Below, one piece after another: positions 28,265-34,062 of a stretch of 64,000 nt of DNA. The DNA is from a virus. Numbering within the stretch: position 1 is the first letter of the stretch; each line of letters begins with the position of its first letter. Both the position numbers and the translations under genes were made by a program. The stretch spans positions 64,001 through 128,000 of the IMG/VR virus record IMGVR_UViG_3300022752_000024. One strand, given 5' to 3'. The notes below the pieces were generated by a model. It did not search any database, was not told the DNA's origin, and saw only the letters and a list, made by a program, of their open reading frames with translations.

Positions 28265-29152
28265 TTAATCTTCTGCTGCAAGTTTGGCAAAGTAATCCAT
28301 GTCATCATCTTCTGACTCCTCTAAGCTAGGTGCTGCTTTAGGTGCCACTTTCTTGATAACTGGTTCTGCATCTTCAACAGTTGTTTGTGGGAAAGAACTA
28401 CCACCGTCTAGACCTAGAACTTTATCTAAACGTGCTTTCACTTGTTCATATGATTTGAACTTACTTGGGTCAATGATCTCTTTAAGAGAGTATTCAGACT
28501 TCCATACTTTCTCAAGTGTATCATCATCGTCAAGTAAAGCGGCAGGTGAATCAAATTCACATTTGTCGTAGTTTTGATAACCATCGACTTTACGAATCTT
28601 CAGTTTGAAGTTTGCACCTTTCCACAAATCAAAAGGATTCATAGGCTTCTCATCTTCAAATTCTGGATTCATAGCACCATTGATTTTATCAAAAATGATT
28701 TTACCATATTTGAACAAAAAGACTTTACCATTGTTCTCTGGACGCTTAGGGTCTTCAACAACATAGATATTTGAAATATACGATAACTTACGCTTCTGAT
28801 CACGGGCAATCTTTTTGTTTGCTTCTATGCCTGAGTTCCATAGGTTTGTGTTGTGTTCACAAACTGGACACTTGTCATTGTTTGTAGTACGACAATCATC
28901 GATCAGCCAACCACCAGGACCTTGAAAGCCATGACGGAATACTTTGACCCAAGGTAAACCTTCATCGCCATCGGCAGGTGGCTCAGGTAGAAAACGAATA
29001 ACAGCATAACCATTACCAGACTTATCTAGTTCTGGTTTCCAGTAATTGTCATCGGATGAATTTGATTCAGAATTTTGATTGAGTGATTCAATCGCTTTGG
29101 AAAGTTTGTCTAGGTTAGACGAACTCTTTTTCAATTTAGAAAAATCTGCCAT
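28265..29152 (-). CDS. gp32: Single-stranded DNA-binding protein
   Basis: WKPELDKSGNGYAVIRFLP, HGFQGPGGW, CPVC, GANFKLKIRKVDGYQNYD, acidic tail; RBS AAGGAG before ATG at 29152. Confidence 0.96.
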   Translation of the reverse strand: MADFSKLKKSSSNLDKLSKAIESLNQNSESNSSDDNYWKPELDKSGNGYAVIRFLPEPPADGDEGLPWVKVFRHGFQGPGGWLIDDCRTTNNDKCPVCEHNTNLWNSGIEANKKIARDQKRKLSYISNIYVVEDPKRPENNGKVFLFKYGKIIFDKINGAMNPEFEDEKPMNPFDLWKGANFKLKIRKVDGYQNYDKCEFDSPAALLDDDDTLEKVWKSEYSLKEIIDPSKFKSYEQVKARLDKVLGLDGGSSFPQTTVEDAEPVIKKVAPKAAPSLEESEDDDMDYFAKLAAED

Positions 29153-29270
29153 AGTAATCTCCTTATTAAACGGCGTATAAACGGAATATAATCGACTTGT
29201 CCACAATGTATCTCATAATATTAAACTATTTAGTCTCAAATTGCAAGCACTATTTTACATATTTTTACTG

Positions 29271-29885
29271 CTAGGTAATGTATGCCGAACTAGCATACAA
29301 TTCTTTTAATTTTGCTTTGTACTTCATTTTATCATAAACAAGAAATGGAGTATACTTTTCTATCTTTTTTTGCCAAGTAGGCCAGATAATATCATCGTCA
29401 ATCTTTTTTTTCCACATTGGTAAGAAGTTCATAATATCATTGAGTATTACCATAGTCTCTATGCATATTTTACTTGATGCCAATTCAGAAAGCAATATTG
29501 GAAACATACCTTGTCTTGGTTTAATAAGTTCTTCAGGATTATAATTATCCAACAAATAGGATACTTGATTTTCAAAAAGATAGAACAATGACTGGTTACG
29601 TTTTTGCCATGTGCGGTATATTTCTTCTGCTTCTTCAGTAAGTAATTCTCCTACCCACTTAGAATCATTTACTAAAAAGTTTGCAACAAAAAAACTTCTA
29701 CATTCTTCTAAGGAATATTTTCTAGATAATTTGTAGAATGAGTATTTGTTTTTATTGGTAAGAAAAGATTCTTTGGAAGTATTAGTCTTACCGTTGTACT
29801 TAAAGTAATCATAGCTGTTGCTAATAAAATGCAACCTCAATGATTGATACATCATATAAACGGCTAGTCCTCCATTTTCACTCAT
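29271..29885 (-). CDS. gp59: Helicase loader
   Basis: LRLHF..YDYFKYNGK, FYKLSRKY, KYTPFL; adjacent to gp32. Confidence 0.88.
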   Translation of the reverse strand: MSENGGLAVYMMYQSLRLHFISNSYDYFKYNGKTNTSKESFLTNKNKYSFYKLSRKYSLEECRSFFVANFLVNDSKWVGELLTEEAEEIYRTWQKRNQSLFYLFENQVSYLLDNYNPEELIKPRQGMFPILLSELASSKICIETMVILNDIMNFLPMWKKKIDDDIIWPTWQKKIEKYTPFLVYDKMKYKAKLKELYASSAYIT

Positions 29886-30103
29886 AGGGGTAGTCTGCAA
29901 GTTTTCTTTATTTGATTATTGCTTTCTGCTTGTTCACGAATCTTTGATTTTAAGTTGGGTGAGATTAAAGTTGAAGCGACTTCGATTTCTAAACCTGTTT
30001 GTGAACAATGGTGCAGAATAGCATCGATATAATCAGAACTTAGCCGACTTGATAGTTCCTCAATCAACAGACTGAAATCTTTTATTTCCTCTTTCGTTGC
30101 CAT
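29882..30103 (-). CDS. gp33: Late transcription coactivator
   Basis: YIDAILHHC..GLEIE..LIS..LKSKI..A; synteny with gp59. Confidence 0.85.
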   Translation of the reverse strand: MATKEEIKDFSLLIEELSSRLSSDYIDAILHHCSQTGLEIEVASTLISPNLKSKIREQAESNNQIKKTCRLPL

Positions 30104-30251
30104 ATTCTTTTAGTGTCCTTATTAATTCATCAATATCTTCATCATGCATAAAAATGGTAGAAGAAAATCTAAGACCATCTTCTCTTTCATCATCAATCTT
30201 AGTTAACAAAAACTGTTTACTGCCATATGGTGATATTTTAAATCTTATCAT
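30060..30251 (-). CDS. Hypothetical protein
   Basis: ORF track; tightly packed in the operon. Confidence 0.55.
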   Translation of the reverse strand: MIRFKISPYGSKQFLLTKIDDEREDGLRFSSTIFMHDEDIDELIRTLKEYGNERGNKRFQSVD

Positions 30252-30778
30252 GTGTTTGTATAAAATATGTGATTACCAATTTGCATTACAACATGCTTTT
30301 TATTCCAACCAGGACTAACATACTTTGCATGGTAAAACATTGCTTGAGTTCTAGCTAGTTTAACATGAGCGATAGGTTGTGTCAATGCTTTCATTGCAAT
30401 ATATTTGGATTCTTCCCAAAGATAGGCATTCTTTGCCGCAGGAACAGTCGTACATGTCCAACTAAACTGACAGACACTTTTGCCATTATAATTAGTTTTT
30501 TGATATACCACACCACATATGTTTACTGGATATTTACCTGAATTAGTTCGATTGATTGTCACCTGTGCTACTGCAAGCTTTCCTTCAAAAGATTCAGATC
30601 CTGCTTCATAGTAAATATTCTTAGCTAAACATTCCATTTCTTTGCTCATGTGTACTTGAATATCAGTATTGATATCTTGTCTCACTTGATATGGAAACGA
30701 ATAGATAAGAATTACAGTAAAAAATAATATAGTAGCTATAAGCAGGTTGACACTTGTGAATATTTTATTTTTAAGCAT
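30248..30778 (-). CDS. Cell wall hydrolase (SleB / Hydrolase_2 family)
   Basis: CLAKNIYYEA, AVAQVTINR, CQFSW, FYHA, IGNHIFY; N-terminal hydrophobic anchor. Confidence 0.9.
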   Translation of the reverse strand: MLKNKIFTSVNLLIATILFFTVILIYSFPYQVRQDINTDIQVHMSKEMECLAKNIYYEAGSESFEGKLAVAQVTINRTNSGKYPVNICGVVYQKTNYNGKSVCQFSWTCTTVPAAKNAYLWEESKYIAMKALTQPIAHVKLARTQAMFYHAKYVSPGWNKKHVVMQIGNHIFYTNT

Positions 30779-30799
30779 TACTTCTCCTTAATAGTTAGG

Positions 30800-30817
30800 G
30801 AGAGACCGAAGTCTCTC
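30800..30817 (-). other. cUUCGg tetraloop hairpin in the hydrolase leader
   Basis: GAGAGAC-TTCG-GTCTCTC on the minus strand, just upstream of the AAGGAG RBS. Confidence 0.7.
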
Positions 30818-30957
30818 TTGTCCCAATCAGGTAGACTTTTTGCTAGTAGTCTTTTCTGGTATGATATTTGAAACGAATCCGTTTAAGGATTGTGTTGTGT
30901 GTAAAAAGTGTGGTAGTGAGTTTATTTCTCAGGTACTCACTCGACCTGTGATATTAT

Positions 30958-31032
30958 TTAGCGATTTGCAATATACATGGAAATTTCAAAACCAAAACGC
31001 ATATCTTGTGCTGAAGGTGTAGTCCATTTCAT
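30958..31032 (-). CDS. pqqA: Pyrroloquinoline quinone precursor peptide PqqA (24 aa, not in ORF track)
   Basis: Hand translation MKWTTPSAQDMRFGFEISMYIANR* matches the PqqA pattern W-x-x-P-x4-(L/M)R-x-GFE-x-x-MY, with the ExxxY core. Strong RBS AAGGAGA upstream. Confidence 0.92.
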   Translation of the reverse strand: MKWTTPSAQDMRFGFEISMYIANR

Positions 31033-31119
31033 ATCATTCTCCTTGATTTGTCATAGCAAAATACTACGACTATAATTATATATGCATAGTGTAACACGAA
31101 TGTAATAATTAAAACCATT

Positions 31120-31156
31120 AAAATGCAAGGTGATTGGGTAATAAGGACACCTTGCG
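31120..31156 (-). terminator. Terminator / 3' hairpin of tmRNA
   Basis: GCAAGGTG...CACCTTGC followed by ATTTT on the minus strand. Confidence 0.65.
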
Positions 31157-31430
31157 AAACCCCAAGAGAATTAAGCCGCTAGGCGTTCATCTCCAAAATA
31201 TGCATCGTTTGCATTTACTTGTTTTGCTCGGATTACGTCCGTCGCCTTTCGTGTTGCCTTCTCTATTATCTCACCCTGTCGAAACCAGGTCATCCCCATC
31301 AGAAGTACACAATCCCCGCTAGAGCCCTAAGAGGTTTCTTTCATCTAGGACAACTATGCACTTCTGGTGGAGATGGAGGGAATCGAACCCTCGTCCAGAA
31401 TGCCTTCACTTTGAAGGAATTACAACAATT
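31124..31430 (-). ncRNA. ssrA: Circularly permuted (two-piece) tmRNA; outer ends approximate
   Basis: Minus strand order: T-arm GAGGGTTCGATTCCCTC plus CATCTCCACCA (CCA ends 31365); a 67-nt self-pairing intervening segment; 5' acceptor strand GGGGATG..TTCGAC from 31297; tag ANDAYFGDERLAA* (31212-31171). G3:U70 alanine determinant present. Confidence 0.93.
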
Positions 31431-31531
31431 CTAATTCTTGTATTTTATTTATTCATTGTAGCTATACAATAACCAAATACAAATGGATATCAAACAACCA
31501 ATAGCTAACCCGATACAGAATCCAGTTATGT

Positions 31532-31560
31532 ATTGTATCATTCTTTATTGATTATGTCAA
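31532..31560 (-). promoter_or_regulatory. Sigma70-type promoter upstream of tmRNA
   Basis: TTGACA-17 nt-TACAAT. Confidence 0.7.
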
Positions 31561-31563
31561 TGC

Positions 31564-32229
31564 TTATTTCGGTGTATTTTGGCGATAATACGTAATTACA
31601 TCAATTAAACCATCAATATGATCTTTGACTTTTTCTTTGAAGATTATTGGAGCAGAATCTTTTACTGCCATAATGATAACCAGATTATCAATTGGAGTAC
31701 CAATTAATTCTTCATACATCGAAGCATAAGCAGTAGTTTGCCAAAAATAGTCTAAAACATCTTCTTTTCTTTTTACTTTACTAGATGTTTTAAAGTCTAT
31801 TACAGAAAGTTCACCTTCATACTCTGCTATACAGTCAACACGACCTGCCATACCTAAAGTCTTAGACCACAATGCTTGTTCTTGATAATGAATGTTATCT
31901 ATGTTGTCTAAGAAAGGTTTAATAGAGAGAAAATACTCAACAGCATCAGGCATGATGCCTCTCATATAATATGGTTCATTGTTGAGATAATTCTCACAGA
32001 TAGTATGAACATTGGTACCTCTAGATGTAGCTTGTTTGGAGATTTTATTGGCTTCTTCTTCGCCAACTCTTGCTCTCCACTCCATGATAGCTTTTTTCTT
32101 TTTGGCTCCTACTACAGTGGTTACTGATGGCAACTTAGTACCATCAGGTAACTTGTAATATCTTTTCCCATCAGGAAAAGTTTCTGATTTTAAATCTTCT
32201 AGTTGTTTTGGTGGGCAATATGTAAACAT
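31564..32229 (-). CDS. PD-(D/E)XK exonuclease
   Basis: LPSVTTV, RGTNVH, AGRVDCIAEYEGELSVIDFKTS, QTTAYA. Confidence 0.88.
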   Translation of the reverse strand: MFTYCPPKQLEDLKSETFPDGKRYYKLPDGTKLPSVTTVVGAKKKKAIMEWRARVGEEEANKISKQATSRGTNVHTICENYLNNEPYYMRGIMPDAVEYFLSIKPFLDNIDNIHYQEQALWSKTLGMAGRVDCIAEYEGELSVIDFKTSSKVKRKEDVLDYFWQTTAYASMYEELIGTPIDNLVIIMAVKDSAPIIFKEKVKDHIDGLIDVITYYRQNTPK

Positions 32230-32248
32230 AATATAATAGATTTTTTAG

Positions 32249-32656
32249 TTAATTACTAGCTCGTAATACTCTAAGTTCAGCCGCTGTATTGCAGGTTTCA
32301 ACAAGTTTAGTAATATCTCGCAATCTTTGTTTTTCAGCTACAATTGCGGATGTGTCTGCATTTGTCTCTAATGCACGTTGAAATAATATATCTTGAGCAG
32401 CTAAAAGAGGTTGCCTTTCATTACGCAAACGATCTATAGTGATTGCTTTAGCTTTAGTAATATTTACCGACACGACACCATTATTTAATTCCCACGCACC
32501 AAAGAAATCATCATCAGCGTTAGGCAATGTGTTAGCATCAACAATAATAGAATGTTCTGGTGTATGTTTGGCTTTAACATCCTCAATGTTCATTTCGTTT
32601 GTTGGAACACACACTGATACGTTGCCATCTTCATTCGTGTATATAATTACGTTCAT
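32249..32656 (-). CDS. Tail fibre assembly chaperone-like protein
   Basis: LRNERQPLLAAQD..EKQRLRDIT pattern; follows a late-promoter-driven small structural gene. Confidence 0.55.
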   Translation of the reverse strand: MNVIIYTNEDGNVSVCVPTNEMNIEDVKAKHTPEHSIIVDANTLPNADDDFFGAWELNNGVVSVNITKAKAITIDRLRNERQPLLAAQDILFQRALETNADTSAIVAEKQRLRDITKLVETCNTAAELRVLRASN

Positions 32657-32665
32657 TTTGACTCC

Positions 32666-33046
32666 TTAAACTGTTTTCATAATAGCCACACTAGTGAAGG
32701 CACCAGAATTAACTCGGGCGTCGCTGGCGTTACTAAATTGGACTTGTACAGATGTAGAGGTTTGTGATAACACATGAGCAAACATTTCGCCATCTGGATT
32801 AGTGCTATACCCAATTGCAGAAACGGCATAAGCATCAGTACCAAGATCAGGAAAAGACACGGTATATTTACCTGCTGCACCATTATAGGTTACCCCACTT
32901 ACATTATCAGACCCGTTTATCGTTGGCGTGGTTGACCCGTTAAAACTAACCCACGCTACAATTGATGATGTAACTGGTTTAGGAGCAGTATTTTGTGTAG
33001 TATTATCGTTGAATATTAAATGTGTTCCATTTGCAGAAATTGTCAT
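32666..33046 (-). CDS. Small fibre-like structural protein
   Basis: IFNDNTTQNTA and AWVSFNG..NVSGVT..GKYTVSF resemble fibre-tip modules; TATAAATA upstream. Confidence 0.55.
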   Translation of the reverse strand: MTISANGTHLIFNDNTTQNTAPKPVTSSIVAWVSFNGSTTPTINGSDNVSGVTYNGAAGKYTVSFPDLGTDAYAVSAIGYSTNPDGEMFAHVLSQTSTSVQVQFSNASDARVNSGAFTSVAIMKTV

Positions 33047-33073
33047 TTTTATACCTCGTTATTTCGAATCATA

Positions 33074-33081
33074 TATTTATA
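33074..33081 (-). promoter_or_regulatory. T4-type late promoter TATAAATA
   Basis: Exact match 27 nt upstream of the 33046 start. Confidence 0.7.
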
Positions 33082-33793
33082 AACCTAATTTTTCTTTTTG
33101 TGTAATATATTCTTTCACAAAACCGCTTCGAACAATGTCATCAGTACAAAACTTAATGTGTCCTACATTTTTAATATTTTCTAGAATTCTCACCGCATCA
33201 TGCAATCCAGACTTCTCTTTCTTACTATTTAGATCGTTTTGATTATAATCTCCACATAATATGAACCTACAATTCTCACCTACACGAGTTAATACCGTAT
33301 CGATTTCGTGGAAAGTAGCTGACTGAAATTCATCAAACACAATAATACAGTTTCTAAATGTCAATCCACGAAGAAAGCTAGTAGTTTGAAACTCTATGAT
33401 TTCCTTATTTACTAAGAAATGCCAAGCATCGCCTCGACCAATTAGTTCATTAACGATATTCATGTAAGGTTCTTGATATATCTTAGCCTTTTCTTCAAGT
33501 GTTCCTGGTACAAAACCTAAATCTCTAGAAGGTACTGCCGAACGGATAATAATTATTCTATTATAATAAGAACTTTCATCAAGGAGTTCACTCAATCCTA
33601 AATACATCGCAAGAAACGATTTACCTGATCCTGCTGATCCAGATAATACAAGATTGTTACCTTCATCATATGCTAAAAAAGCTTTTTCTTGGTTCTCTGT
33701 TAGCGGTTTAATTTTCTTCAGAGTGAAATGTTGTGATTTGGCTTCTGCTGAGGCTGTTCTTTTTTTTGTTGCCAATTGTTTCTCCTTTACCAT
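33077..33793 (-). CDS. phoH: PhoH-like ATPase
   Basis: GSAGSGKS, RSAVP, FLRGLTF, DEFQ, TRVGEN, GDYNQND, DIVRS. Confidence 0.93.
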   Translation of the reverse strand: MVKEKQLATKKRTASAEAKSQHFTLKKIKPLTENQEKAFLAYDEGNNLVLSGSAGSGKSFLAMYLGLSELLDESSYYNRIIIIRSAVPSRDLGFVPGTLEEKAKIYQEPYMNIVNELIGRGDAWHFLVNKEIIEFQTTSFLRGLTFRNCIIVFDEFQSATFHEIDTVLTRVGENCRFILCGDYNQNDLNSKKEKSGLHDAVRILENIKNVGHIKFCTDDIVRSGFVKEYITQKEKLGL

Positions 33794-34062
33794 TCACGAG
33801 GCATTTTAGTTTTGTGTCCTGCTTTTACAGTATTACCAGGTACTCTTTCTTTAATTCTACCAATAACTTCTCTTTCAAACCGTGCATCGGGTTGTCCTAT
33901 ACCAGGAACAGACATACGCATACCATCACCTAATATAGGTGCTTCGTCTATGTATCTTTCTAAATGGGAATTATTGGACTTAAAATCATCATACTGAGAG
34001 ATTCTCATTGTATGTTCTTCAAGTGTATTCGTTTCTTTATTTAAGAATGCGTAAGTTGGCAT
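33787..34062 (-). CDS. Conserved phage protein (FmdB-like N-terminus)
   Basis: MPTYAF start; typical neighbour of phoH. Confidence 0.65.
   Translation of the reverse strand: MPTYAFLNKETNTLEEHTMRISQYDDFKSNNSHLERYIDEAPILGDGMRMSVPGIGQPDARFEREVIGRIKERVPGNTVKAGHKTKMPREW

Follow-up and report, generated by a model that had tools for sequence, protein, structure and literature searches.

PqqA is the peptide precursor of the cofactor PQQ. PqqE, together with PqqD, cross-links a glutamate and a tyrosine of PqqA, and every PQQ made uses up one PqqA peptide (references in PMC7678222 and PMC9851590). Methylophilaceae chromosomes carry 3-12 copies of pqqA but have only one pqqBCDE set (PMC4109929). Among the five pqqA genes of a PQQ-overproducing strain, the highest expression was that of pqqA1, located in the pqqABCDE operon, and of pqqA3, located separately, and the expression peak of these two genes coincided with the steepest rise in the rate of PQQ synthesis (PMC9851590). 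Viral PqqA has been described as an auxiliary metabolic gene in T4-like phages of Lake Baikal, which have a GC content of 35% and predicted Methylophilaceae hosts (Coutinho et al. 2020, Microbiome 8:163, PMC7678222), and was proposed to support PQQ-dependent methanol oxidation in these hosts (PMC7678222). Furthermore, in a study from 2026, the phosphate-solubilising auxiliary metabolic genes include pqqA, pqqD, and pqqE encoded by viruses (PMC13188868).

The chromosomal copies follow the same multi-copy pattern in the genomes that we inspected. Ca. Methylopumilus universalis carries pqqA at about 416, 457, and 1186 kb and pqqE at 578 kb; all three pqqA genes are more than 100 kb away from pqqE, so that every pqqA in this genome is an orphan. 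Another Methylophilaceae genome holds four pqqA copies. Here, we describe a stand-alone pqqA gene in an uncultured T4-like phage and compare it with these systems.

The phage pqqA gene and its product

The window, meaning the whole stretch of DNA that was analysed (64,000 nucleotides), comprises bases 64001-128000 of a 142,881-bp IMG/VR virus record, which CheckV rates as 86% complete. A preceding sequence-only reading had placed a 24-codon PqqA ORF with an AAGGAGA ribosome-binding site at 30958-31032, giving no strand. Both the ORF with its peptide and the ribosome-binding site are present, and the gene consists of 24 codons and a TAA stop on the minus strand. A plus-strand reading of this interval was rejected, as it contains no ORF. 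The gene comprises the following features:

30958-31032, minus strand: pqqA, with the ATG at 31032-31030 and the TAA at 30960-30958
30985-30987, minus strand: codon GAA for Glu16 of pqqA, from the translation
30973-30975, minus strand: codon TAT for Tyr20 of pqqA, from the translation
31038-31044, minus strand: Shine-Dalgarno motif AAGGAGA of pqqA, 5 nt 5' of the ATG, from the sequence

The ribosome-binding site is nearly identical to that of the following phage gene with its start at 30778 (ATTAAGGAGAA and ATCAAGGAGAA, respectively; repeat D2). The proposed assignment to PqqA, for which a profile search had been named as a check, is borne out by two curated models. The peptide scores 31.9 bits against Pfam PqqA PF08042 (E=1.3e-7, cut-off 21.1) and 31.8 bits against the NCBIfam equivalog TIGR02107 (E=9.2e-8, cut-off 20). 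As both models are exceeded, the ORF is genuine and not a chance match. Scanned in all six frames, the complete 142,881-bp record yields a single PqqA site above cut-off (29.5 bits, E=1.8e-7).

The peptide follows the architecture of the family. Its segment E16-I-S-M-Y20 has the E-x3-Y spacing of PqqA, and a K-W-T-T-P leader, corresponding to the W-x-x-P region by which PqqD recognises PqqA, aligns with the family as well. The peptide carries D10, I17, S18, and the C-terminal IANR. Ser18, located between the glutamate and the tyrosine, is replaced by threonine in all 240 other sequences retrieved. A sequence search of the PDB with the peptide gave no match.

Location in a T4-like phage genome

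The GC content is about 35% and even across the window, matching the 35% of the whole record. T4-like genes lie on both sides of pqqA and encode baseplate and tail proteins, gp32, gp59, the late-transcription coactivator, and PhoH. On the minus strand, the order is PhoH, PD-(D/E)XK exonuclease, tmRNA, pqqA, cell-wall hydrolase, late-transcription coactivator, gp59 helicase loader, and gp32. The window pqqA is therefore situated in a bona fide phage genome rather than in a bacterial contaminant. The protein-coding neighbours on either side of the tmRNA-pqqA pair are:

31564-32229, minus strand: PD-(D/E)XK exonuclease, upstream neighbour (phrog_298, 251 bits; PF12705), syntenic in the related contig L068
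30248-30778, minus strand: cell-wall hydrolase, downstream neighbour (Pfam Hydrolase_2 PF07486, 79.5 bits), with an N-terminal hydrophobic segment

The SleB-type hydrolase at 30248-30778 is unusually placed among early and replication genes, and is possibly an endolysin of the signal-anchor-release type.

Megablast of 29000-34000 against GenBank phages gave no match, and the baseplate wedge shares less than 30% identity with those of the best-matching cultured phages. Judged by these comparisons, the nearest cultured relatives of the window phage are distant T4-like phages.

The absence of pqqB-E, claimed before for the window, extends to the entire record: neither pqqB, pqqC, pqqD, pqqE nor radical-SAM genes were detected in the 142,881 bp (86% complete). 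Likewise, no PQQ-dependent dehydrogenases of the methanol/ethanol, PQQ_2, or GSDH families were found in these 142,881 bp. The phage pqqA is consequently stand-alone, and both the making and the use of PQQ would rely on host enzymes. Linkage to pqqBCDE is thus missing from the record; as unlinked pqqA genes are normal in Methylophilaceae, this does not exclude membership in the family.

The upstream tmRNA and expression signals

The position directly downstream of a tmRNA, which had been noted from the sequence, was confirmed by ARAGORN and Rfam. A two-piece tmRNA lies just upstream of pqqA on the same strand, and the gap between the two genes is 47-64 nt, with pqqA downstream. The tmRNA scores 148 bits with RF01850 (gathering score 84) and 153 bits with RF04321. 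Its tag, ANDAYFGDERLAA, is unusual. No glutamine riboswitch was found in the tmRNA region at Rfam gathering scores. Around the tmRNA and pqqA, the following elements were located:

31532-31560, minus strand: sigma-70-like promoter TTGACA-17-TACAAT with an upstream TG, ahead of the tmRNA (11/12 matches)
31080-31478, minus strand: circularly permuted two-piece tmRNA with tag ANDAYFGDERLAA (ARAGORN 31080-31457; Rfam beta_tmRNA 31097-31478)
31125-31155, minus strand: hairpin closing the 3' end of the tmRNA coding piece, GCAAGGUG ... CACCUUGC, followed by the U-rich tail AUUUUAAU, from the sequence, its loop exceeding the length covered by the scan
31075-31080, minus strand: perfect TATAAT -10-like hexamer without a good -35, 43 nt before the pqqA ATG and below the promoter-scan threshold
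30912-30946, minus strand: weak terminator-like hairpin 3' of the pqqA stop codon, with CACACUUUUUAC (CUUUUU) behind it (fold -10 kcal/mol, z = -1.7)

Transcription of pqqA could occur by read-through from the tmRNA promoter or from a promoter of its own, two candidates that we leave unranked. The hairpin at 31125-31155 may stop part of the transcription ahead of pqqA. The TATAAT hexamer at 31075-31080 could conceivably act as the gene's own promoter, and a promoter-like TTGAAC-18-TATAAT is found between the tmRNA and pqqA in the related contig L074. Downstream of pqqA, classic GC-rich hairpins with U tracts occupy the same position as the weak hairpin of the window in four further contigs (L050, L011, L058, and L035).

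The arrangement admits a speculative and rather unlikely proposal. In one lineage of T4-like phages, comprising this record, L074, and L068, the tmRNA, pqqA, and hydrolase genes would form a conserved early host-maintenance unit, in which ribosome rescue and precursor supply are switched on together from one sigma-70-type promoter; or else the divergent peptide, with its D10, S18, and IANR, would act on the host PQQ machinery otherwise than as a plain substrate.

Conservation of pqqA among viral contigs

Viral relatives were retrieved from IMG/VR with a degenerate DNA pattern for MRFGFE[VI][ST]MY, which at least 120 contigs match. Among the matches listed, all 120 contain an intact PqqA ORF of 22-29 amino acids with a W-x-x-P leader and a stop 3-4 codons past the tyrosine, and an SD-like motif precedes pqqA in 120 of 121 viral copies. 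With the Acinetobacter operon (L008) as the source of queries, tblastn found no match for PqqB, PqqC, PqqD, or PqqE in 1.02 Mb of sequence flanking the IMG/VR matches listed.

The degree of relatedness around the gene differs between contigs. In L050, L011, and L058, BLASTN similarity to the window is confined to the ORF and its SD motif (30954-31048), while L074 and L068 add short, weaker matches in the tmRNA and the neighbouring genes. In these two contigs, the order of tmRNA, pqqA, hydrolase, coactivator, and gp59, in part with the preceding exonuclease, is kept. Their syntenic proteins are 38-51% identical to those of the window, with the hydrolase at 47% for L074 and 38% for L068, and their pqqA DNA is 86-88% identical. 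The closest pqqA among the matches listed has a DNA identity of 94% and is located at an array of 24-28 tRNA genes (L050, L011, L035).

As a separate observation, pqqA tends to be situated where large phages carry their small-RNA (tRNA/tmRNA) cargo. In L050, a 166-kb contig that is 48% complete and classified as a jumbo phage by CheckV, pqqA is convergent to the end of the tRNA array, and the same holds for L011 and L035.

Pairwise dN/dS values of pqqA range from 0.04 to 0.21 and are biased downward, because 10 of the 22 compared codons are fixed by the retrieval pattern. Across the 121 viral copies, third codon positions are about three times more variable than first and second positions. By sequence comparison, the gene is a conserved, stand-alone member of the PqqA family under purifying selection.

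Could pqqA nonetheless be a functionless passenger, i.e. a recently captured fragment of a host chromosome that sits, still undecayed, in the variable tRNA/tmRNA region? The gene does lie in a cargo-rich small-RNA region, beside tRNA arrays in L011, L050, and L035 and beside tRNA-Leu in the cultured phage Melnitz. We regard a passenger as quite unlikely, given the intact ORFs in 120 of 120 listed copies with their nearly universal SD-like motifs, the low dN/dS (even if biased downward), and a synteny that persists though the neighbouring proteins are only 38-47% identical. Moreover, the resemblance in DNA to 120 sampled bacterial pqqA loci covers just 22-38 nt of the core (89-100% identity) and does not extend into the flanks. 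Such a short, core-only match argues against a recent capture and against a role as an att site.

Homologs in cultured phages

A tblastn search of GenBank phages recovered the peptide in Melnitz (4 records), P19250A, Venkman, MEP301, MEP401/402, and one uncultured podovirus. The peptides of the cultured phages are 59-71% identical to that of the window, with Melnitz at 71%. All homologs in GenBank phages consist of a complete ORF with its own SD motif and the core MRFGFE-V-T-MY, and the glutamate, the tyrosine, and the reading frame, whose retention was to be checked, are kept in every phage homolog examined. The lone pqqA thus described spans cultured Methylophilales phages of several genome types. 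Two matches labelled 'Acinetobacter phage MD-2021a' (CAKLQF020000010.1 105204-111275, L008) were rejected as a phage example, since they represent a chromosomal ppk-pqqABCDE locus; the record carrying the phage label resembles bacterial DNA, or else a misbinned contig of very large size.

In each record inspected (Melnitz EXVC044M, P19250A, Venkman, MEP301, and MEP402), pqqA is either unannotated or covered by a CDS on the wrong strand. In the Melnitz record MZ577097.1, the hypothetical CDS MelnitzEXVC044M_152 is called opposite pqqA at 76134-76205, and in MW202481.1, the CDS UOF77531.1 is called opposite pqqA at 2122-2187. The publications on Melnitz (PMC9004378), MEP301, and MEP401/402 that we searched do not mention a phage pqqA.

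These annotations bear on the question of whether the conserved element is the sense ORF at all. It could instead be an antisense ORF, an RNA element within the tmRNA transcript, or a host-gene copy serving as attP. Of the 121 viral copies, 113 have one antisense frame open, which shares its wobble positions with the sense frame, so that the codon-position periodicity is not decisive for the strand; GenBank places antisense CDSs over pqqA in Melnitz and ctXG6705, and the adjacent small host RNA genes are classic integration targets. The sense frame, however, is the only one that is open in 121 of 121 copies, its start and stop codons lying at constant distances. It is also the sole frame to match a curated family (E about 1e-7), and the SD motifs lie on its strand. 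No Rfam family covers pqqA, no repeat joins the tail of pqqA to the tail of the tmRNA, and the DNA of this T4-like phage is identical to no sampled bacterial copy. Taken with these points, an element other than the sense ORF is extremely unlikely, and the open antisense frame probably explains the antisense miscalls in GenBank.

Host of the phage

The earlier suggestion of a PQQ-making, probably betaproteobacterial host agrees with the tmRNA, which is of the betaproteobacterial type (Rfam beta_tmRNA), and with the bacterial distribution of the PqqA subtype. Among bacteria, this PqqA motif occurs chiefly in Methylophilaceae and further Burkholderiales, and also in Methylophaga, and pqqE was above cut-off in all five candidate-type genomes checked. 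The nearest counterparts of the window subtype, with its D10 and C-terminal IANR, occur in Rhodoferax, Limnobacter, and further Burkholderiales with a GC content of 49-67%. The phage GC content of 35%, in turn, is close to the 34% of the Methylopumilus locus and fits Methylopumilus- or OM43-like hosts. The peptide of Melnitz, a proven OM43 phage, also departs from the common Methylophilaceae peptide.

Two routes to a more precise host were dropped. A search of the tmRNA against 301 Burkholderiales genomes gave weak, partial matches of mixed GC content (at most 78% over 96 nt, or 89-94% over 33-45 nt), and the peptide subtype, pointing to high-GC Burkholderiales, conflicts with the 35% GC of the phage. 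As peptide subtype and GC content disagree, we assign no family; the host is probably a betaproteobacterium of the order Burkholderiales.

Proposed role of the phage-encoded precursor

We consider it likely that pqqA is kept by selection in this lytic T4-like phage and supplies the consumed precursor to a PqqBCDE set presumed to be present in the host, with expression, processing, and benefit to the phage being steps that we infer. After infection, the 24-residue peptide would be translated from its strong ribosome-binding site. Its W-T-T-P leader would be recognised by host PqqD and PqqE, which would join Glu16 and Tyr20 by a cross-link, whereupon host PqqB, PqqC, and a peptidase would turn the cross-linked peptide into PQQ. 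Host transcription is likely curtailed during infection, at a time when the phage pqqA would be active. Since one PqqA is destroyed for each PQQ, the phage copy would then maintain or increase the amount of precursor available for periplasmic PQQ-dependent dehydrogenases, such as methanol or alcohol dehydrogenase, and the sustained PQQ-dependent oxidation would yield energy for phage production. By analogy with Methylophilaceae, which combine many pqqA genes with one pqqBCDE set, the phage copy is best read as one more precursor gene.

A different use of the same peptide would be that of a decoy or a repurposed peptide, which binds host PqqD/PqqE or another partner and blocks or redirects PQQ synthesis, or which yields a product other than PQQ. 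Consistent with this idea, the window subtype differs from the common Methylophilaceae peptide, with a Ser18 seen in 0 of 240 other sequences, and the phage encodes no detected PQQ-dependent enzyme. For a decoy, loss of the reactive pair or divergence of the core would be expected; the peptide instead keeps all family-conserved residues, including Glu16 and Tyr20, and many viral copies are amino-acid-identical to host PqqA. We therefore judge a decoy to be very unlikely and favour the supply of precursor.

As a supplier of precursor, a 75-bp gene that gives only the consumed substrate would be remarkably minimal for an auxiliary metabolic gene. It points to PQQ-dependent oxidation in the periplasm, by methanol or alcohol dehydrogenase, as the energy source of these phages. 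The gene is routinely missed or put on the wrong strand by gene callers and in GenBank annotation, and offers an inexpensive marker for phages that infect PQQ-making Betaproteobacteria. Melnitz, which grows on OM43 strain H5P1, provides a culturable system with a pqqA homolog.

Comparison with known systems

A lone phage pqqA has been on record since 2020, and such genes are common among phages that infect methanol-eating bacteria; the window pqqA therefore represents a further example and not a discovery, and this instance adds little beyond the link between pqqA and the tmRNA.

Compared to the pqqA of canonical pqqABCDE(F) operons, the window gene likewise passes both family models and features the E-x3-Y pair and the N-terminal W-x-x-P leader. 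In contrast to the operon gene, it is virus-borne and not followed by pqqB-E. The orphan pqqA genes of Methylophilaceae belong to the same family, have the same size, and are equally unlinked to pqqBCDE, but are chromosomal and mostly of the ...EMRFGFEVTMYVMNK type, whereas the window peptide carries D10, I17, S18, and IANR.

The cultured Methylophilales phages (Melnitz, Venkman, P19250A, MEP301, and MEP401/402) share with the window phage a lone pqqA of 22-24 codons with its own SD motif and the core MRFGFE-x-T/S-MY. Melnitz is likewise a T4-like myophage, of about 141 kb, whose two-piece tmRNA precedes the late-transcription coactivator (PMC9004378), a gene located at 29882-30103 in the window. 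Unlike in the window, the pqqA of Melnitz adjoins tRNA-Leu and the baseplate hub, away from the tmRNA.

The Baikal VP_266 phages share with the window a PqqA gene in an uncultured T4-like phage with a GC content of 35%. By their published description, the Baikal phages are set apart by a methanol dehydrogenase gene and, in VP_139, by radical-SAM genes, neither of which was detected in the 142,881-bp record. Set against the same description, the window pqqA is distinguished by its location directly behind a two-piece tmRNA. As a whole, only Ser18 and this conserved position behind the tmRNA are particular to the window pqqA.
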